47,650 nucleotides of DNA from a virus (Duplodnaviria; Heunggongvirae; Uroviricota; Caudoviricetes). Each line of letters starts with the position of its first letter. The first letter of the stretch is position 1. Below, in pieces: positions 4,352-34,760 of this stretch. Made by a program: the position numbers and the translations under genes. Where the stretch lies: IMG/VR virus record IMGVR_UViG_2541047798_000009, one strand, 5' to 3'. The notes under the pieces were generated by a model. The model had not been told where the DNA came from, ran no database searches, and worked only from the letters and a program-made list of their open reading frames with translations.

Positions 4352-7300
4352 TCAGCTAATCGTGATGCCTGCAGTGGCTTTCTTCATCACAACAACCAGC
4401 AAATCGCTGATACTTGCTGTGGGATACCAGCCATTTACCCACCATGCTGATACAGAAAACTCCAGCGTCATGTCGCCGCGACCAGCAGGCATATCAATAA
4501 CACCACTGTAAACCAGCGTATTATCCATCGCGGTACGGTTATAAATTTCAGCACCGTTTTTCTTCACTATCAGGCGGCATGACGAATAAGTATCGCTGTT
4601 CTCCCGCTCATGTCTGGCACCGCTGAAAGCCACCGCCGGAATAACAATCTGCCGGTTAAACGGCTGATCGTCATAAACCCTGACGGTAATGGTTCCTGAT
4701 GGCCAACGCTTCGGTGCACGGGAGTCACGAGGGAAAGCCTTACCCACTGTTTTAACGAGATCGCCTTCAATCTGGTTTGCAGACAGTTTCCCTCTGATGA
4801 CACAGTTCTCGTTAATGGTGACATTATTGAGCGTGCCGGTATTCGCCGTGATGGCTCCACTGATATCCGCATTGCGGGCTGCCAGCCTGCCATCCGGCGT
4901 CAGGGAAAACGTAGGAGGATTGCCGGATGACGTGATGCTCACCGCAAACAGTCGCTTCAGGAACACGTCGTTCATGAACAGCTGATTCCCCTGCGCCACA
5001 AACAGCGGCGTGGTGTTGCCGTTCTCCGGGGTAATCATCGCAATGCGATCGGCCTGCAGCAGAATGTTACTCAGGGTCTGACCATCAACATCCTCAATCC
5101 CCGCGCCAATCCCGGCCACATAGGGAATACCGTTTTTTGTTTTCTGCACCTTCAGCATATACATGGCATTCAGCTCATTGCGCGTGTCTGACTGAACCCG
5201 CTGGATTTGCTGTATGGTCACGGCCTGGTCACCCAGCTTTTTATCCGTGGTCGAGGTAATTTCACTCCCTTTTTTATCCACGTACTGGCGGACCTGTGCT
5301 ATCTGTCGGGCGTTTTCTGACTGCCCCTGGCTGACAGTCTGTGAGATTTCACTGCTCACCCGGTCCACTTTCTGGCTCACCTGCGCGATGGCCAGTGTCT
5401 GATCCTCATTCTTTTTCGCAACCAGCTGCGTGAGGCTGTTTTCCGCCTTCCCGATTTTCCGGGTCACTTCTGCGATATCCGTGTCCATCCGCTGACGGAT
5501 ATCTTCTTCCAGTTGCGTGACCTCCGTACGCAGCGCTGAAGCATCAATGCGCTCTTTCAGTGCCTGGCCCAGAAGCGTCTCATCTATCAGCCCCCGGAAA
5601 ATTTCCAGATACCCTTCACCATCATTGCTGGGCTGCCCGCTGGCTTCCACAAAAGCAGATTTTCCCACCAGGTTGACGCTTCGCACGTAAAACCAGAAAT
5701 CCGTCCCCGGCTTAATCCGGCTCCCCTGGACAGTCCACTGACTGCCGGTCCCCAGATAACGGGCAGATTTTTCCACCTGTGCTGTGTTCGTGATGCGTTT
5801 TTCTGAGAACCAGAATTCAAACTGTACCGTCGGGTCATACACCGCAAGACGCGGGACCGCCGTTATCTGAAAATACCCCGGCGTCAGCTCAATGGTGGCG
5901 GGTTTTGCAGGTGCGTTAATCCGGAAGGTGGTGGTGGCAGGTTCACCCTGCTGGCCATAGCTGTTTATCGCCCGCACCGTCAGGGTGTATTCCCCGAGCG
6001 GCAGGCCGCTGAAACGGTGCTCCGTGTCTGCGGTGATGGCAGTGGTCACCAGTCTGGCATCCGTTCCCTTACCACTGGTCAGGCGCAGACTGAAGCGCAC
6101 GCCCTTCACCACCCGCGGCGTGTCCCATTTCGCCTGCGCCAGATACTGGCCATCAGCTGCGCTCACCTCCACCGTCAGGTGCTGCACTGCCGGTGGGATA
6201 ACGCTGTTCAGGGTGCCTGACTGCGGCTCAAAGCGGGCACCGTTATCCACGATGGCTTCTTTTTCCGGTACGTGCTGCACCGCCGTGATGGCAAAGGTGC
6301 CGTCCGTGTTTTCCCGGATGGAGACACAGCGGAACAGGCGACGGCGCAGTGACGGCAGGGAGAGTCCCCACACCCCGTATGTCTCCACACCATCAGGCAG
6401 GGTACTGACCTGTATCCGGTCCGGCGCGGGGTGTGCGGTGATGTCCACACTCACCGGCTTACCGCTGCCGTTAATCAGGTTCACCGCTGATGTACCTGTC
6501 TCCGGCAGGGTAACCTCACGGTCCAGCGTCAGGGTGCGGGTGGCAGCATCAATGGACAGGACACGTCCGCCGGTCAGGGTCCCGGCATAGTCATTATCAC
6601 AGATTTCAATAATGTCACCGGGTGTGTGACGCAGCCCCTGTGACCCGAGCGTGAAATCCACCGTCTGCGTTTCCAGCAGTTCGGTCTTTATCACCCACAG
6701 CCCGGCACGGTGGGCCTGACCGCGGCTGGTACAGCCGAACGCGTCCATCTTCAGCAGGTTGCGTCCGTAGCGCAGTATGGCTTCCGGGTCTTCCACCAGT
6801 TCCGTGGAGGTCTGCCAGCCGTTCTGCGGGTCGGTGTAATTCACCTCCACCGCCGTGTGCCGGTCCTTCAGGGCACTGAAGCTGTAGCGGAAACCCACGC
6901 CGTTATCATCCACCACCACATCGCTGCTGGTGTACGGCCACACCACATCCGACGGGCGGTCCTGAACAAACGTCAGCGTCTGACCGTTCCATACCGGCAT
7001 ACAGCGCATCGCAGAGCAGAAATCACTGAGAACGTCCCACGCCTTACGCTGTTGTGCCAGGTACGCATTAAAGGTCATCCGCGGCTCGGTCCCCCCGAAA
7101 CCATCCGGGACCGTCTGGTCGCAGTACTGCCCGATGGCATACAGCGCCCACTTGTCCACATCCGCCACCCCCAGACGTTTTCCCATGCCGTAGCGCGGGT
7201 GAGTCAGCATGTCCCACAGGCACCAGGCCGGGTTGTTGCTGTATGCCGGTTTCAGACTGCCGTCCCAGATACCACTGTACGTGCGTTTTTCCGGGTCATA

Positions 7301-24889: not shown

Positions 24890-25231
24890 TCAGGGTGCAG
24901 AAGGACTAAAGATAAACGTTTTCTTCACGCCTTTACACGGCCTGTCCTTCTCAAATCGCCATTTTGCCATCGCCTTTACAACCTGCTCATCAAACAAATG
25001 GTGCGGCTCTGAACGGATAAACTCAATTCGGGTGACAGTACCATCAGCACCAATATCAAACTTCACATCAACCCGTCCCTTTATATAATTTGCCGCTGCA
25101 TAGGCCGGATATTGTGGTAATGCCTTAACCAACTGTCGGGGCATATCTGTTTTATGTTGCGTACAGCCCATAACCAGAGAAGACAACAAAATAATTAACG
25201 GAAGATTTCTTTTCATTTTCATTCCCGGCAC
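24890..25231 (-). CDS. Lipoprotein with TonB C-terminal-like domain (about 110 aa; likely start at 25216-25222)
   Basis: Lipobox LVMGC after a signal peptide; C-terminal YPAYAAANYIKGRVDVKFDIGADGTVTRIEFIRSEPHHLFDEQVVKAMAKWRF fits the TonB_C pattern. Confidence 0.6.
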   Translation of the reverse strand: MPGMKMKRNLPLIILLSSLVMGCTQHKTDMPRQLVKALPQYPAYAAANYIKGRVDVKFDIGADGTVTRIEFIRSEPHHLFDEQVVKAMAKWRFEKDRPCKGVKKTFIFSPSAP

Positions 25232-25554: not shown

Positions 25555-26022
25555 TTATTTCAGGCACTGAGTGCGGATATATTCCTGCGCCACTTCCAGC
25601 TGCTTCTGCATCAGCATCAACCGCTCTCTGAGAGTGAAATAATCCCGTTCAGCGGTGTCTGCCAGTCGGGGGCCGGTTGCATTATCCACGCCGGAGGTGC
25701 CGGTGGCTTCACGCACGGTACCGGGGCAGGTGGCGTTGATCCGCAGGCGCTTACGACCAGCGGCAACATCAGCGCGCAGAGTTTCATTTTCAGCTCTCGC
25801 ATCGGCTAATTCCCTCGAGTATCTGGCATCAAGTGCAGCAACATCACGCTGGCGCTGCTGCATATCAGTAATGGTTGCATTTGCCAGCTCCAGCTCTCTG
25901 GCTTTTTTATCGCGCTGCGCTTTGTAAGTGATGGCGTTATCGCGGTAATGATTCAGCCCCAGACTAAGCGCACCACAGGCCACCAGCAGAGCAATGATGA
26001 CCACACACAGAACGCGGTTCAT
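25555..26022 (-). CDS. Rz: Rz i-spanin (155 aa)
   Basis: N-terminal TM segment then coiled-coil periplasmic domain; immediately after the endolysin; contains embedded Rz1. Confidence 0.85.
25617..25787 (-). CDS. Rz1: Rz1 o-spanin lipoprotein embedded in Rz in the +1 frame (about 56 aa)
   Basis: [17 protein letters not shown] lipobox followed by a proline-rich sequence, entirely inside Rz. Confidence 0.8.
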
Positions 26023-26358: not shown

Positions 26359-26892
26359 TTATCTGTCGATACCCCAGCACGCCAGCGCGCTCTCCTGGTC
26401 ACGACGGGATACCTGACCGTAACAGTTATTTGAGCGAATACGGCAGTCTCTGCCACCGTCCTTAATCCACCAGCGAATCGCTTCGCAGGCACCTTTTCGA
26501 TCACCTGCATTAATTCGTCTGTAAAACGTCGACGGGAAACACTTACCGGGACCAATGTTGTACGGACAGAATGACGCGATCCCCGCTTTCTGGGGTTCGG
26601 TCAGCGGCACTCTGATGTTTTTCTCCACCCACGCCAGCGCTTTATCACGCTCAATGGCGTTAACCTGGTCGCATTTTTCCTTCGACAACTTCATGCCCGG
26701 AACGACAGGTTTGCCATCCACCATGATGGCACCACGGCAGATGGTCCAGATACCTGCACCATCACGGTATGCCGTGGTGTGGTTGCCTTCCTTTTCATCC
26801 AGAAACTGGTCGAGAATGTCAGGCGCAGGCGCACCAGCGGCAATCAGCGCCAGAACGGCAGCCGACAGGCCGTATTTGATTTTGGTGTTCAT
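26359..26892 (-). CDS. R: SAR-type endolysin (phage lysozyme, 177 aa)
   Basis: Gly/Ala-rich weakly hydrophobic N-terminus (SAR-like) and lysozyme core resembling phage 21 R. Confidence 0.85.
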   Translation of the reverse strand: MNTKIKYGLSAAVLALIAAGAPAPDILDQFLDEKEGNHTTAYRDGAGIWTICRGAIMVDGKPVVPGMKLSKEKCDQVNAIERDKALAWVEKNIRVPLTEPQKAGIASFCPYNIGPGKCFPSTFYRRINAGDRKGACEAIRWWIKDGGRDCRIRSNNCYGQVSRRDQESALACWGIDR

Positions 26893-27921: not shown

Positions 27922-28137
27922 TTACTCTCCCCGCGCCGCCTTACGCCGGTCCTCTTTGATTTTGAAATACAGGTTAGTCAGGTACGTCAGCAGCCCAAAC
28001 AGCAGACTCCCCAGCACGCCTATTGCCGCCCACTGAGACGGGGAAACCCTGTCCAGCAACTGCAGGAACCAGTAGCCCGTTCCCACCGCTGACGTGGTGT
28101 ATGACACACCTGTTGTGATTTTTTCCATCTGGTACAT
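27922..28137 (-). CDS. S: Pinholin (phage 21 S-like class II holin, dual-start motif MYQM)
   Basis: [71 protein letters not shown] is clearly homologous to S21 as recalled. Confidence 0.9.
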
Positions 28138-28838: not shown

Positions 28839-30800
28839 TCATGCCGCGGCATCCGCGTTGTTCACTTCCACCTTCACACTGTCAATCAGCAGCGTATATG
28901 TCGCCGCCTTTGATATGCCTGTCAGTTGCAGTTTGTCCGCCGCCCCTGATGCCGGAGATTTCACCAGTGTGAACGGCGTCCCCCGTTTCTCATCCAGTAC
29001 CGGCGTCACCTGAATGCTGTTGTTTCCGGCAAACTCAAAAGCCAGTGTGTGCCATCCGTTATCAAAGACCCCGAACGTATCCAGCTTCGCATTCGGCTTC
29101 TTGTGGTGCATCGCGTTCAGGTTCGTCGCATCCGTCTGCAGGAAGAAGGACATCAGCATGTCGTTGCCTTCCTCTGCCAGCGTCACTCCCTCCGGCAGGG
29201 ACGACAACTGCCAGTAAATGCCCAGGGCAAACTGATTCGGCACCAGTGAACCCGGCAACTTAAACCGTACGCTCACACGTCCCCCCTTCTTCAGTAACTC
29301 CACTCCCTGTCCGGCTGCATCATGCTCCAGAAACCAGATGTGGTTTTCCGGTTTATTCAGTTGCAGGGCCTTACCTCCCGTAGCCCCCGCATCACTGACC
29401 ACCGCTTCAGCAATGTTTTTGTTAACATTGTCTCCGCTCGCCGGTTTGTGATAATAGCGCCAGCCCTGTGATGCCAGGTCTTCGCCGGACGCCAGCAGAC
29501 TCATCAGGGTTCGGTTACTGACCGGGGCTTCCGGCTCTCTCTCCGTACCTTCACCGGAAGGTCCGGTGGGCTTCACCGTATCAGGCTGTTTTCCGGTAAT
29601 GAATTCAGCGTTTCTCCCGGCATGCACAAGAATCGCCGTTGCCAGACGGTCGGAAATAATCCCACGACGTGCCCATGATCCAAAATGCGTTTTACGGTCA
29701 GCCGTCGTCCAGGTTTTGGCGTCCGTTCGACCACCGGCTCCGTAATACCCAATATCCGCAACATCCGGATCTTCTGACGGCTCGTTGGTACCCACATTTC
29801 GCCCGTTTTCATCCGTCATAAACGGCACAAAGAAGATTTTTTTTGCGGATTTCGTCTTGTATGCACCATACACCGCATCGTATTGCGAAGAATAAGTCTG
29901 CTTCCAGTAGTAGGTCGTGTCGCCACAAATCCAGGGAACTGATGACGGAGAGCCCCCGAGACACTGACCTCCGAATTCCGACAGGTCAGAACGATATTTT
30001 TCCACCATGGAATCAAACAGCCCCGGCTGAGTGGCGTATGCACCCTGTTTCAAATCAAACTCGCCCTGCATCCAGACCACTGCAAGCAGAATATTTTTAG
30101 GGTTGGCCTTCAGTGCGGCCTGAGTACGGGTAAGCAGGTCCTTGTACAGTGGCTTATCTACACCCCAGCGTGCCGAGGTCTCGCTTGCGCCGGTGGATTC
30201 GCTGAAGGTACCTTCATCGCCCGCCAAAAATGCAGAACCACCACGGCAGCACGGAACCAGAAGAATACCGGCATTCGCCGGAATAAACGGCAACAATTTC
30301 TTCGCGATATGTAATCCCTGCCCCACGCATCCATACTGAGCTGCGCTGGCTTTCGGGTGTGAAAACTTACTCAAATCCTGAACATCATGCAGGCAGTGGT
30401 CCGCAGGAATAATGTCATTGTAGTTACAGGACGCACCACCCGGCGTGACAGTGCTGCGACGCGCCAGCTGTTTAATACGCGGGTCCGGACGGTCATATGT
30501 CTCCGGCAGCGGAAGCCCTTCACCATACGCCATACCGTTTGACTGCCCGGCCAGGGCAACAACAAAGTAATACTCCGGGTTGCTGGTGGTGCTGATAACT
30601 GCGCCTTCTCCATCCGACGGCTTCACCACCACAGGTGTGGTGACATCACCTTCCGCCGCAATGGCCTGCATCAGGGTATAAGGCGTGATGGCCACCGGAC
30701 TGCCAAATGGCTGCCACCCCTCCTTCAGTTTTTGTGTCAGTCGTTTCGCAAGGTCTGACGGCGATGCCGCCCTGACCACGTCATAGTGTTTAAATGCCAT
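28839..30800 (-). CDS. Prophage sialate O-acetylesterase (NanS-p-like: DUF1737 N-domain plus SGNH esterase, 653 aa)
   Basis: N-terminal MAFKHYDVVRAASPSDLAKRLTQKLKEGWQPFGSPV... and size match the large esterase ORF found downstream of stx in Stx phages, as recalled. Confidence 0.8.
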   Translation of the reverse strand: MAFKHYDVVRAASPSDLAKRLTQKLKEGWQPFGSPVAITPYTLMQAIAAEGDVTTPVVVKPSDGEGAVISTTSNPEYYFVVALAGQSNGMAYGEGLPLPETYDRPDPRIKQLARRSTVTPGGASCNYNDIIPADHCLHDVQDLSKFSHPKASAAQYGCVGQGLHIAKKLLPFIPANAGILLVPCCRGGSAFLAGDEGTFSESTGASETSARWGVDKPLYKDLLTRTQAALKANPKNILLAVVWMQGEFDLKQGAYATQPGLFDSMVEKYRSDLSEFGGQCLGGSPSSVPWICGDTTYYWKQTYSSQYDAVYGAYKTKSAKKIFFVPFMTDENGRNVGTNEPSEDPDVADIGYYGAGGRTDAKTWTTADRKTHFGSWARRGIISDRLATAILVHAGRNAEFITGKQPDTVKPTGPSGEGTEREPEAPVSNRTLMSLLASGEDLASQGWRYYHKPASGDNVNKNIAEAVVSDAGATGGKALQLNKPENHIWFLEHDAAGQGVELLKKGGRVSVRFKLPGSLVPNQFALGIYWQLSSLPEGVTLAEEGNDMLMSFFLQTDATNLNAMHHKKPNAKLDTFGVFDNGWHTLAFEFAGNNSIQVTPVLDEKRGTPFTLVKSPASGAADKLQLTGISKAATYTLLIDSVKVEVNNADAAA

Positions 30801-31398
30801 GAATCCTCCCGGCCGGGATAATATTGTGAGTAAAATAAGGAGCGGGCTGAAGTCCGGAAGTTACAGGACAATGGCAGAAGAGAGACGACAGCCCGCAATT
30901 CGAAAAAGACCGCGCAGTTGCGCAGAGTGATTACTATGGGGTATTATTCGTCAGCTGAAATATTACTTCACGTTTTATTGTTTATTCCTTGCCGCCCGCG
31001 TCTCCCAGCGCGGGCTTTTTTTGTCCATAAGAAAGCCCCTCCGGAGAGGGGCTGGAGAGTGGCGCTATGTGCCATTGCATGATGCCGGGTGCCTCCCGGT
31101 GAGTTCAGCCCGGTGACACTGAACCCGCGTCATTCTCGTTTTGATAATCAGAGATTATACCATCACCAGTCGCCCCTCCGCTCAGGGGGATTCACCATGC
31201 CGTTCTCTTTTAACAAATTCGCCGCTAACAGGACAACATTCCGCTTTCTGAGTTGTGAGGAATTTAACACTTCACACCTGTGTGCATTTTCTACAGGCTG
31301 ATCCCAGCACCACAATACATCGCAGGCAACAGAAGCCAAATGCCCCACCACAGAAAAAACATGCAATTATGATTATTGTTTACTGCAAAGATGTAGAA

Positions 31399-31827
31399 TC
31401 ACGGTTTAAAATCCAGCACTCCATTGTGAAATACTTTATATACTTCCGGAGACGGCGGAACTGGTATATCAGCATGCTTCACCGCATTCATCGCTTCACG
31501 ACATAAATCGGGGTCTCCACCTTCTCTTTTAACCTGTAGCAGAAGACCATTCGGGGCCATATACATTCTCAGTGAACACTCTTTTCCTGAATACTTACTC
31601 GCATCCTTTAACTGTTCTTCTATGGCTTTCCTGACCTGAATGGCATACTGCCTGATTTCTTCACTGGCATCAGGGGTACGTTCCGATGAGCTCAAATTTT
31701 GCGACTTTATTAATTTATCTGAGTGATACAGAGAAGCATCATAATTATTTGTCGATACATCTTTTGTGCAGCCAGTTGTCAGACTGGCTAATATCAAAAC
31801 AAGAACTGGTACAGCACGGCAATACAT
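31399..31827 (-). CDS. Lipoprotein of unknown function (142 aa; possible TolA/TonB C-terminal-like fold)
   Basis: Signal peptide with lipobox LTTGC; occupies the slot between the tRNAs and the esterase where stx sits in Stx phages. Confidence 0.5.
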   Translation of the reverse strand: MYCRAVPVLVLILASLTTGCTKDVSTNNYDASLYHSDKLIKSQNLSSSERTPDASEEIRQYAIQVRKAIEEQLKDASKYSGKECSLRMYMAPNGLLLQVKREGGDPDLCREAMNAVKHADIPVPPSPEVYKVFHNGVLDFKP

Positions 31828-32105
31828 TTATCCATCTCCATATTAACAAGAACAATTATCTATAAAATATAGTAAATATGCGGGATCCGGGAGGACTTGT
31901 AACTATCATCTCCGGATCAGCATGTAGTTTTTATTTTTCCGGATGATATATGCCGCAATAATACCTCTGCATACAGATGCCTGCAAATATCTGCGAAGCA
32001 TCCGGCGAGAATAAACAAGGAAGTCTGAGGCTATCTTATATGATAGCCTGTTGCTCAAAAGACAATGATTCACTCATCAGAACCAACAACGCATAATGCA
32101 GATAA

Positions 32106-32182
32106 TGGACCGCCATCGAGGACTCGAACCCCGCGCAGCCAGCTTCGAAGGCTGGCGCTCTATCCCGATGAGCTAATGGCGG
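32106..32182 (-). tRNA. tRNA-Arg (anticodon UCG by hand folding)
   Basis: Hand-folded cloverleaf: 7-bp acceptor, D-arm GCTC/GAGC, anticodon stem CCAGC/GCTGG with loop CTTCGAA, T-arm CGGGG-TTCGAGT-CCTCG, CCA encoded. Confidence 0.7.
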
Positions 32183-32191
32183 TATGTGATA

Positions 32192-32267
32192 TGGTGGCCC
32201 TTGCTGGATTTGAACCAGCGACCTGGCGATTATGAGTCGCTCGCTCTCACCACTGAGCTAAAGGGCC
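32192..32267 (-). tRNA. tRNA-Ile2 (anticodon CAU, ileX/ileZ-like)
   Basis: Sequence GGCCCTTTAGCTCAGTGGTGAGAGCGAGCGACTCATAATCGCCAGGTCGCTGGTTCAAATCCAGCAAGGGCCACCA is very close to E. coli ileX as recalled; anticodon loop CTCATAA. Confidence 0.8.
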
Positions 32268-32307
32268 GGGCGCAGGATAATAACGGTACGTAACTAATTC
32301 TGCAATA

Positions 32308-32646
32308 TCATCCGTTCTGACTGACTAAATCCTGAACTTCCCGAACCGTCTGCTCAAAACGTTCAGTCTCCAGCTCAACGCCTGTAGCACGACGGCCCAG
32401 TGCCAGTGCAGCTTTAACTGTTGAACCTGACCCCATAAAAAAATCTGCAACCAGGTCACCCGGACGACTGCTTGCGCTGATTATCTGCTGCAGCATTTCT
32501 GCCGGTTTTTCGCACGGATGTTTCCCGGGATAGAACTGCACCGGTTTATGCGTCCAGACATCGGTATACGGCACCTGCGCCGTCACGCCAAAATACCGCC
32601 GCAGTCGGCATTCACAACCACCAGCGCATTTAACGTTCAGGCACAA
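32308..32646 (-). pseudogene. C-terminal fragment of a DNA N6/N4 methyltransferase (truncated at about 32640)
   Basis: Contains ...FYPGKHPCEKPAEMLQQIISASSRPGDLVADFFMGSGSTVKAALALGRRATGVE (AdoMet-binding motif) but no catalytic DPPY region; upstream sequence switches abruptly to AT-rich porin promoter DNA. Confidence 0.6.
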
Positions 32647-33096
32647 AAAAACCCGCTCGACGGCGGGTTTAAGCTGTGTGACGAAGTAACCACTCTTAAC
32701 AGCATAACCAATTTTTTACGTACGTAAACTACTAAATGATATTTGTGAGAATGCCACCGAGTGTTCAAAACACCACCACAAATACATAAGAAAACCTCAA
32801 CAAATAACCAATGAATAATTTCCGATGTTATTTTTAGGTTGTTTAAATTAAGCCAAAAAATTATAGGGCGCTTATAAATAAGTGTCATTAATATAAATTA
32901 GCTAATAGATTTATTTTTGTTCAAACAAGAGCCATGAATAGGATTAGATAGAAAAGGTTCAGATAAAAATAGAGATCTACGTCACAAATTAAATGAGAAA
33001 CTAAAACTTACATCTTGAAATAATCACATTGATTAGATGAATATTTATCGCGCAGTGACATCATTTTTTTATAATAGTTCAAAAAAAGGGCGTACA

Positions 33097-34179
33097 ATGA
33101 AAAAATTAACAGTGGCAATTTCTGCTGTAGCTGCATCAGTACTGATGGCGATGTCTGCTCAGGCAGCTGAAATTTATAATAAAGACAGTAACAAGCTGGA
33201 TCTATACGGGAAAGTTAATGCCAAGCACTACTTCTCCTCTAATGATGCAGATGATGGTGATACTACTTATGCTCGTCTTGGCTTCAAAGGTGAAACCCAA
33301 ATCAACGATCAACTGACTGGTTTCGGTCAGTGGGAATATGACTTCAAAGGCAACCGTGCTGAATCTCAAGGTTCTTCCAAAGACAAAACCCGTCTTGCAT
33401 TTGCAGGCCTGAAATTTGGTGATTACGGCTCAATCGATTACGGTCGTAACTACGGTGTAGCATACGACATCGGTGCGTGGACTGACGTTCTGCCAGAATT
33501 CGGTGGTGATACCTGGACCCAGACAGATGTGTTCATGACTGGCCGCACTACTGGTGTTGCAACTTATCGTAACAACGACTTCTTTGGTCTGGTCGATGGC
33601 CTGAACTTTGCTGCTCAGTATCAGGGTAAAAATGACCGCACTGACGTAACTGAAGCCAATGGTGATGGTTTCGGTTTCTCCACTACTTATGAGTATGAAG
33701 GATTCGGCGTGGGTGCAACCTATGCTAAATCAGATCGCACTGACGGTCAGGTCGCCTATGGTAAGAGCAAATTCAATGCCTCCGGCAAAAATGCGGAAGT
33801 ATGGGCTGCAGGCCTGAAATATGATGCGAACAATATCTATCTGGCTACCACATATTCTGAAACTCAGAATATGACCGTTTTTGGTAATAACCATATTGCA
33901 AACAAAGCACAAAACTTTGAAGCAGTAGCACAATATCAGTTTGACTTCGGTCTGCGCCCATCTGTTGCTTACCTTCAGTCAAAAGGTAAAGACCTTGGTG
34001 TTCATGGTGACCGAGACTTAGTCAAGTATGTCGATGTCGGTGCTACTTACTACTTTAATAAAAACATGTCCACTTTTGTTGATTACAAAATCAACTTAAT
34101 TGACGATAGTAAGTTTACCAAAACAGCTGGTATTGATACCGACGACATCGTCGCTGTAGGTCTGGTTTATCAGTTCTAA
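33097..34179 (+). CDS. Outer-membrane porin (OmpC/OmpF/NmpC/Lc family, 361 aa)
   Basis: Signal peptide [23 protein letters not shown] then [23 protein letters not shown]... and C-terminal ...[11 protein letters not shown]-rich promoter region upstream; antisense to late transcription as nmpC is in DLP12. Confidence 0.9.
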
Positions 34180-34367
34180 TCTGACTTACGAAAAAGATAT
34201 GTTGCGGGAGGCTTTGCCTCCCCAACATATAAGTGGAGCCCTCAAGCCACTTCCTTTAGAAGCACTACCTTGCTTCTTACTATATAAACCTTCTGTTATA
34301 TATTACCCTTTATTTTGGGGGCGTTTCCACGCCCCATTTTTAATAACTTTTAGTAAATAATTGCATA

Positions 34368-34760
34368 TCAATTAGAATTATTAGCAACGATATCCATATC
34401 TAACCGGATATCTAATGCCATTAACATCCCTTCAATTATGCCCTCAGCCTTCTGTAACCTTTTCCCGATATAACCATCCGAGCAGCAATGCTTACTTGCC
34501 AGTGACATGAATGTCATACCACATACATAATAATCTACTAATAAATCGTGTAAATCGCTGTTGTTCTTTTTCAGACGGGCCATGCACCCGCAAATGATCA
34601 TCGCGTCATCGTCACAACATTGCGGGCGAGATTTTACTTTTGAAGGAATTAATCCCTTAAAACCGGCAGCAATGGACGACCAGGTCACATCCTCATGATT
34701 ATTTGCCGCCCATGCGCCCCAGCGTTCAAGAACCATCTGAATATCACGCATTATTCGCAC
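34368..34760 (-). CDS. Late-gene antiterminator Q (DLP12 QuuD-like, 130 aa, GTG start)
   Basis: [60 protein letters not shown]... matches QuuD as recalled. Confidence 0.88.

Follow-up and report, generated by a model that had tools for sequence, protein, structure and literature searches.

The IMG/VR virus record IMGVR_UViG_2541047798_000009, a stretch of 47,650 nucleotides (the window), carries between a late antiterminator gene and a holin gene a small lipoprotein gene, in the slot where Shiga-toxin (Stx) phages carry stx. Positions 31300-32300 are 100% identical to at least 15 complete Escherichia coli chromosomes, that of the O7:K1 strain CE10 among them, and this identifies the window as a lambdoid prophage of E. 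coli. Its late region is encoded on the minus strand. The product of the cargo gene belongs to the TolA/TonB C-terminal domain family: it is a stand-alone, complete TolA domain III (TolAIII) but no TolA protein. The gene and its parts are as follows.

31399-31827, minus strand: coding sequence of the 142-residue TolAIII lipoprotein (TolAIII-lpp), RefSeq WP_000271630.1 (PF06519; phrog_5772; PGAP)
31768-31827, minus strand: signal peptide and lipobox, MYCRAVPVLVLILASLTTG followed by C, with Cys20 the predicted lipidation site
31669-31767, minus strand: linker of about 33 residues (21-53), predicted to be disordered (AlphaFold2 predicted local distance difference test, pLDDT)
31402-31668, minus strand: TolA domain III fold (residues 54-142), with C84, C109 and the beta3 strand LDFKP

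The open reading frame has a GGAG 8 nt upstream of its ATG. The signal peptide is composed of an n-region with R4, a hydrophobic h-region (AVPVLVLILASL) and the lipobox LTTG-C20. The segment VLILASLTTGC passes a PROSITE-type lipobox rule, with a Thr at position -3, where Leu, Val or Ile are commoner. Across alleles the lipobox is kept as LTTGC, LTAGC or IIIGC, the last in the alleles called type B below. Thr at +2, with no Asp, predicts Lol-dependent sorting of the putatively lipidated protein to the outer membrane.

The assignment of the remainder to TolA domain III is supported by several comparisons. The Pfam family PF06519 (TolA C-terminal domain) matches residues 52-140 (3.8e-23; 81.9 bits, cut-off 25; positions 7-96 of the 96-position profile). 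In a phmmer search of the PDB, residues 54-142 align without gaps to residues 333-421 of E. coli TolA (1S62, 3QDP, 1TOL and 2X9A; E ~1e-26), and BLASTP gives 56% identity between residues 57-142 and TolA 336-421. An AlphaFold2 model (11 family members) has pLDDT values of 70-90 for residues 53-142 and below 50 for residues 1-52. Foldseek aligns this model with 3QDP at a TM-score of 0.88 and a root-mean-square deviation of 1.4 Å; for 3QDP, 3QDR, 2X9A and 1TOL taken together the ranges are 0.83-0.88 and 1.4-1.7 Å. The fold is alpha-beta-beta-alpha-alpha-beta, and the putative disulfide cysteines C84 and C109 are invariant. Neither the membrane anchor of TolA (domain I, which provides the TolQ-TolR coupling) nor its long helical domain II is present. 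Over its full length the protein matches phrog_5772, a family of unassigned function, at 5e-57.

The original prediction, made from the sequence alone, described a 142-residue lipoprotein of unknown function in the cargo slot. The start codon, ribosome-binding site and lipoprotein signal bear out the lipoprotein; "unknown function" undersells the sequence, since a homology search finds the stand-alone TolA domain III. The homology extends over the last 89 residues of the 421-residue TolA, yet the gene has its own start, ribosome-binding site and signal. Together with a conserved full-length family and the purifying selection described below, these features indicate that it is no fragment of a larger known gene.

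In several hundred genomes the gene bears the RefSeq/PGAP name "tolA: cell envelope integrity protein TolA" (e.g. CE10_RS12840). The NCBIfam equivalog model NF007065 fails, with a score of 104.6 where 213 is required, and covers only profile positions 297-386 of 387. TIGR02794 passes with 74.2 against 59.45, with a match only to profile positions 266-362 of 362, the C-terminal domain. The RefSeq name probably arose because TIGR02794 passes on that domain alone. For the 142-residue gene it is wrong, an over-annotation through which these genomes seem to have a second tolA; K-12 tolA belongs to the tol-pal operon (ybgC-tolQRAB-pal-cpoB), whereas this gene is in the late region of a prophage.

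The ligands of TolA domain III dock on its beta-strands. Strand beta3 (A415-K420; LDFKP is L417-P421) is used for strand addition by g3p-N1, by colicin N and by the TolB N-terminus (PMC4339652; PMC7391070), and the substitutions D418P or K420P abolish colicin killing and give a full tol phenotype (PMC4339652). The colicin A site comprises beta2 (L375-P380, LLDIKP) together with K368, K379 and K396 (PMC3365938). Colicin A binds with an affinity of about 1.3 µM (PMC3365938), and TolB with one of 40-200 µM (PMC7391070). In the cargo protein beta3 is LDFKP, identical to TolA 417-421; LDFK is invariant in all intact alleles and P142 is found in 10 of 11. Strand beta2 reads LLQVKR against LLDIKP in TolA, and K379 and K396 are kept as K100 and K117. 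Both beta-strand docking sites are thus retained, and binding of the same ligands is predicted. Two experimental precedents bear on what such a protein could do. According to PMC6195910, which cites Levengood-Freyermuth 1993 and Wan & Baneyx 1998, E. coli given TolAIII with a signal peptide, and so in the periplasm, releases periplasmic protein. Periplasmic g3p-N1, which sequesters TolAIII, gives colicin A tolerance and a 4-log fall in phage uptake (PMC10424213).

The gene is common. Counted at a coverage of at least 80%, it is carried by 886 (about 16%, or about one in six) of 5426 complete E. coli genomes and is almost always chromosomal; the carriers include extra-intestinal and Shiga-toxin-producing strains. 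The commonest allele shows 83% DNA identity. There are two allele types, 67% identical to one another; the lipobox, the two cysteines and the domain are conserved in each, and the linker is the most divergent part. Between them the ratio of nonsynonymous to synonymous rates (dN/dS) is 0.36 in the domain and 0.40 in the signal and linker, so that the gene is under purifying selection, with the domain more constrained than the linker. A recent copy of the host tolA was considered as a source and rejected: synonymous divergence (dS) from K-12 tolA is saturated (~2.8), and GC content at third codon positions is 0.36 vs 0.47.

Some alleles (P0021-P0031, P0037) are frameshifted near codon 124, with the new tail RRKYIKYFKMGCWILNP..., or truncated, and have lost the beta3 strand.

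A tblastn search of 50,697 deposited phage genomes found the gene only in mEp460_ev081, and when one genome per species was scanned, Shigella flexneri was the only carrier outside E. coli. On these two scans the close family is restricted to Escherichia and Shigella. IMG/VR holds 125 loci with the gene, 80 of which were examined for context. In each of the 80 the gene points the same way as the late genes and lies between an antiterminator gene and a holin gene, with three unrelated antiterminator types and two holin types; ileZ plus argN or argO are present in some of these loci and absent in others. The type A alleles, that of the window included, are followed by an esterase gene. After type B alleles comes a further TolAIII-like gene, more divergent and 124 codons long, directly upstream of the holin gene. 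This paralogue has a lipobox-like VAGC (MLTFWVGFVAGC...), matches PF06519 at 1.1e-14 and has the C-terminal strand GFDMRG in place of LDFKP. It is found at 5455-5829 of the E. coli H10 locus (L009) and at 4359-4754 of the phage mEp460 locus (L002), and is absent from the window.

More distant relatives were sought in an exhaustive profile search, which gave 472; the best 150 of them include 71 short proteins (100-170 residues), 46 of these with a lipobox. Short lipoproteins that end in TolAIII, with a tail like FKNAxLDFKP, form at least 46 distinct clusters at 50% identity (P0041-P0185; loci L092 and L093). One of them, P0057, is chromosomal and not in a phage, flanked by a ClC channel gene on one side and an osmoprotectant ABC transporter operon on the other. 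The contexts of the distant members are mixed or uninformative, and say little on function. A lipobox followed by TolAIII only is a broad architecture, and this wider family appears to be uncharacterised. The domain family is well known; the architecture, its phage location and the implied role as a natural dominant negative are apparently undescribed, since a full-text literature search for any TolA or TonB domain characterised in a phage, a prophage or a lipoprotein returned nothing relevant, with a report in a journal outside its coverage possible.

The other features of the locus, listed in the direction of late transcription, are these.

34368-34760, minus strand: late antiterminator Q, QuuD type (PF06530, 7e-54; PGAP "QuuD")
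33037-34179, plus strand, opposite to the late genes: OmpC-family porin gene, between Q and the tRNAs
32649-32728, minus strand: homologue of the pR'-qut-tR' region of Stx2 phage 933W (alignment, 81% column identity)
32308-32646, minus strand: truncated DNA-methylase gene, between Q and the tRNAs
32277-32305, minus strand: homologue of the putative 933W tRNA promoter pT (TTGCAG-17-TATTAT), inside a block of 94.6% identity to 933W
32192-32267, minus strand: tRNA-Ile2, anticodon CAU, the ileZ of Stx phages (ARAGORN; Rfam, 72.5 bits; PGAP "tRNA-Ile")
32106-32182, minus strand: tRNA-Arg, anticodon UCG, the argN of Stx phages (ARAGORN; Rfam, 55.1 bits)
31238-32084, unstranded: AT-rich cargo cassette, in the place of argO and stx2AB (blastn breakpoints against 933W; GC profile)
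31023-31229, minus strand: STnc100-family small RNA element with terminator, in the spacer between cargo and esterase genes (Rfam RF02076)
28839-30800, minus strand: NanS-p-type sialate O-acetylesterase (DUF1737, SASA, DUF6645), homologue of 933W L0105
after the esterase and before the holin: DUF1378 and DUF826 genes
27922-28137, minus strand: class II (P21-type) holin, first gene of the lysis cassette
26359-26892, minus strand: endolysin
25555-26022, minus strand: Rz spanin
24890-25222, minus strand: 110-residue lipoprotein made up of a TonB C-terminal domain only, immediately downstream of Rz (PF03544, 1.3e-14; PGAP "TonB family protein")

The slot was defined by blastn of the window against 933W. 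Upstream of the cassette, 32085-32415 is 94.6% identical to argN, ileZ and pT of 933W, 32640-32731 is 78% identical to its pR'/qut/tR' region and 34477-34751 is 78% identical to its Q. Downstream, 31076-31237 is 77% identical to the stxB-L0105 spacer and 30693-30925 is 92% identical to 933W at the start of L0105; the esterase and holin regions farther downstream are likewise homologous. The breakpoints leave a cassette of 847 bp exactly at the place of argO and stx2AB, and the 933W counterpart is 1466 bp with argO, a terminator and stx2AB. The GC content of the cassette is 37-41% vs 51-55% in the flanks. The position in the stx slot is thereby confirmed, as is the order antiterminator, tRNA, cargo, esterase, holin that had been likened to Stx phages. 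This order stands with two amendments: the porin and truncated methylase genes sit between Q and the tRNAs, and argO, the third Stx-phage tRNA, is absent.

The porin gene inserted in the region 32732-34476 is OmpC/NmpC-like and has very AT-rich flanks (GC 29%). It separates Q from the pR'-qut-tR' homologue, and late transcription therefore begins downstream of the porin gene. A near-consensus promoter-like site (ATGACA-17-TATAAT) at 32888-32860 on the minus strand is directed toward tR'. The methylase reading frame is a C-terminal fragment of an N6/N4 DNA methyltransferase (PF01555 positions 135-220), a pseudogene in RefSeq, and the part of it up to 32415 is also kept upstream of ileZ in 933W. 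The STnc100 match is full-length (158 bits against a threshold of 47) and includes the terminator hairpin.

Both tRNA isotypes named in the original prediction agree with ARAGORN, Rfam and the comparison with 933W. The CAT tRNA is identical to 933W ileZ at 76 of 76 positions and matches K-12 ileX (tRNA-Ile2) at 68 of 76 (89.5%), but the elongator tRNA-Met genes metT/metU at only 52 of 77 (67.5%). It carries the acceptor pairs C4-G69 and C5-G68, which are reportedly acceptor-stem determinants for TilS, a result ascribed to Ikeuchi and colleagues in 2005. On these comparisons it is a tRNA-Ile2, with a CAU anticodon reading AUA once it has received its predicted lysidine modification. The TCG tRNA has one mismatch to 933W argN.

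The proposed decoding of rare codons by these tRNAs holds for ATA only. ATA makes up 4 of the 6 Ile codons of the cargo gene (28 per 1000). The expected CGA enrichment in late genes is not seen, CGA being equally frequent in late and early genes (4.3 per 1000), and the cargo gene has no CGA and no CGG codons. The frequency of CGG is 14.7 per 1000 in late genes, 13.7 in early genes and 2.5 in a small K-12 sample. The rare Arg codons of the cargo gene are AGA and AGG, which would need the missing argO, and so for its Arg codons the tRNA account is unsupported.

The placement of the gene in the late operon, also proposed before, is supported by the pR'-qut-tR' homologue at 32649-32728 and by the constant position between antiterminator and holin in the viral loci. 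The gene is lysis-linked by position only. The pR' homologue has conserved -35 (TTTACG) and -10 (TATGCT) elements, and the tR' hairpin is conserved, with a terminator-like site at 32670-32649. A second terminator-like site, at 31053-31034, lies within STnc100, 350 nt downstream of the cargo gene, and would stop the cargo transcript when antitermination is absent. For the window allele the best upstream match to a promoter of its own is 9/12, and there are 7 promoter-like matches vs 8.6 expected by chance. The type B allele, the commonest, has the promoter-like TTGAGC-18-TATAAT (10/12) some 30 nt ahead of the ATG, and a terminator precedes the holin gene. This arrangement of promoter, gene, gene and terminator is that of a moron and suggests expression in the lysogen. 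The CP-933O gene EDL933_2012 ("TolA"-type, 32-fold up after ciprofloxacin) was considered as expression evidence and not used, because the supplementary table lists it as a tail fibre protein.

The same prophage encodes a second lipoprotein of related design. The product of the gene after Rz has the signal MKMKRNLPLIILLSSLVMG followed by C, with the lipobox LVMG-C20 and Thr at +2; its linker is only about 7 residues long, and the gene has a GC content of 0.43. In a phmmer search of the PDB its residues 28-106 match the E. coli TonB C-terminal domain (1U07, 2GSK and 2GRX; 4e-16 to about 1e-15), the PQYP motif included. The gene is present in at least 414 of the 5426 E. coli genomes (~8%), O157:H7, O145 and O111 among them, and follows Rz in 73 of the 74 IMG/VR loci with upstream sequence among the 80 contigs examined. 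Both lipoproteins have a Thr-+2 lipobox and a transducer docking domain only, are encoded at low GC and flank the lysis cassette. They differ in family (PF03544 for the TonB-domain protein), linker length, position and distribution. An obligate pairing of the two was considered and rejected: only 5 of the 31 loci with enough upstream sequence carry both, and one locus has stx2AB instead.

We tentatively favour, as a possibility rather than a probability, the reading that the cargo protein is an outer-membrane-tethered decoy that competes with the host TolA and makes the lysogen tolerant to Tol-dependent colicins and filamentous phages. The lipoprotein signal would export the stand-alone domain and tether it to the periplasmic face of the outer membrane by the flexible linker. 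Lacking domains I and II, the protein could not transduce force. It would bind the ligands that normally dock on the host TolA, namely group A colicin epitopes, g3p-N1 and, more weakly, the TolB N-terminus. A modest amount under the outer membrane would catch incoming domains and disturb Tol-Pal little; the affinities given above for colicin A and TolB suggest that low levels would capture invaders preferentially. The pay-off would be that the lysogen or infected cell tolerates Tol-dependent colicins and filamentous phages, an exclusion that acts by blocking import. Levengood-Freyermuth and colleagues, in 1993, reportedly found that periplasmic TolAIII also confers group A colicin tolerance. 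The carriage in 886 of 5426 genomes, the dN/dS values and the constant position in 80 of 80 loci support a functional gene. A wider form of the proposal is that lambdoid E. coli prophages carry energy-transducer decoys, outer-membrane lipoproteins that are the docking head of either TolA (the cargo protein and the 124-residue paralogue) or TonB. Together they would intercept Tol- and Ton-dependent import of colicins and phages and so give broad tolerance without receptor mutation. We regard this generalisation as rather doubtful.

Several observations weigh against the TolA decoy or its extension to TonB. One of the three colicin A cation-pi lysines is altered (K368, here Tyr or His). If the decoy titrated TolB as well, the lysogen would forfeit resistance to detergent and bile, and filamentous phages are non-lethal, so that selection by them would be weak. 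Without a convincing promoter of its own the gene may be made only late, from pR', which would leave little time for colicin protection to matter. The frameshifted alleles indicate that the gene is dispensable and decaying in some lineages. Short TolAIII lipoproteins of the wider family are also found at ordinary chromosomal loci, and the family is therefore not intrinsically a phage function. Finally, the TonB-domain lipoprotein behaves as an independently distributed moron.

The main rival to the decoy, which we consider unlikely, is that the protein destabilises the envelope late in infection. TolAIII made in quantity under Q would saturate the TolB N-terminus, shut down Tol-Pal and loosen the link between outer membrane and peptidoglycan, and the resulting vesiculation and leakage would aid lysis by holin, endolysin and spanin. 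The late-operon position fits this reading and the decoy alike. The gene is always co-oriented from antiterminator to holin (80 of 80 loci), in the commonest arrangement it lies with its TolAIII-like paralogue immediately upstream of the holin gene, and the window allele, with no convincing promoter of its own, is downstream of the pR'-qut-tR' homologue. The TolB-binding strand is invariant; the leakage caused by periplasmic TolAIII (PMC6195910) and the full tol phenotype of TolA beta3 mutants (PMC4339652) are effects of the expected kind, and their cost to fitness would be irrelevant in a cell about to lyse. However, the phage already has a complete lysis set of holin, endolysin and Rz spanin, and the weak binding of TolAIII to TolB (40-200 µM) would call for a high protein level. 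The moron anatomy of type B suggests expression in the lysogen. Nor can envelope destabilisation explain the TonB-domain lipoprotein of the same prophage: blocking of TonB would keep out Ton-dependent colicins and phages without weakening the envelope, and this consideration, which we hold lightly, favours import blocking by both genes over help in lysis.

Two further explanations seem less probable. The TolAIII fold might be a scaffold in a surface or envelope factor of lysogenic conversion unrelated to TolA ligands, either like Bor or Lom (serum resistance, adhesion) or a modulator of vesicles or capsule through envelope stress. Lambdoid phages do place lipoprotein and outer-membrane morons beside lysis genes (bor in 933W), a porin gene and a Lom-like gene are likewise found in this prophage, and extra-intestinal and Shiga-toxin-producing strains are among the carriers. 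The invariant residues, however, are those of the TolA docking strand and the core, which would be unexpected for a mere scaffold; similarity to Bor, Lom or TraT is absent, and nothing in the sequence predicts surface exposure. We judge this explanation improbable. It is very improbable that the gene is a non-functional hitch-hiker, a captured tolA-like piece persisting in a recombination-prone slot of mosaic prophages. The frameshifted and truncated copies (P0021-P0031, P0037) and the single carrier, mEp460, among 50,697 deposited phage genomes are what such a history would leave. Against it stand the intact reading frame in 886 genomes, the dN/dS of 0.36-0.40 with the domain tighter than the linker, the lipobox and both cysteines conserved across alleles only 67% identical, and the recurrence of the same architecture in no fewer than 46 separate 50%-identity clusters.

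TolA and TonB are the two gateways into E. coli for nearly all colicins and several phages. If the decoy reading is true, natural, mobile, dominant-negative docking domains would be a new route by which prophages alter bacterial warfare and phage infection. If the protein acts in lysis instead, it would be a fourth kind of lysis accessory, aimed at the Tol-Pal tether. The wrong "TolA" label in several hundred RefSeq genomes could in either case mislead pangenome and essentiality analyses.

The cargo cassette can be compared with several known systems. It shares its slot with the stx2AB cassette of 933W, including the upstream flank (ileZ-argN), the downstream flank (STnc100-like spacer and nanS-p esterase) and the pR'-qut-tR' control region, and both are ATA-rich (28 codons per 1000 in the cargo gene and 37 in stx2AB). 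They differ in content, an AB5 toxin there and a TolAIII lipoprotein here, and in the argO missing here. With domain III of E. coli TolA the protein shares the fold, 56% identity, both cysteines, an identical beta3 LDFKP and a similar beta2; TolA adds domains I and II, in the place of which the cargo protein has a lipoprotein signal and a short disordered linker.

Llp of T5 and Cor of phi80, N15, HK022 and the mEp phages are small outer-membrane lipoproteins that block FhuA import shared by phages and colicins. The cargo protein would resemble them as a small phage lipoprotein that closes an import route, a hypothetical resemblance in function only. With PADLOC the cargo protein matched no defence system, and Pfam and PHROG place it in the TolA domain family and phrog_5772, with no direct comparison to Llp or Cor having been made. 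Llp and Cor bind the receptor FhuA, whereas the cargo protein would mimic a periplasmic energy transducer and would not plug a receptor.

Two further comparisons concern TolAIII itself. Laboratory constructs of periplasmic TolAIII likewise place the isolated domain in the periplasm, uncoupled from energy, and cause leakage (PMC6195910). They are soluble and over-expressed, whereas the cargo protein is natural, has a predicted outer-membrane lipid anchor and is only 56% identical. The g3p of filamentous phages in infected cells exploits the same TolAIII interaction from the opposite side: g3p masks the host TolA, whereas the cargo protein would mask the TolA-binding site of the invader.

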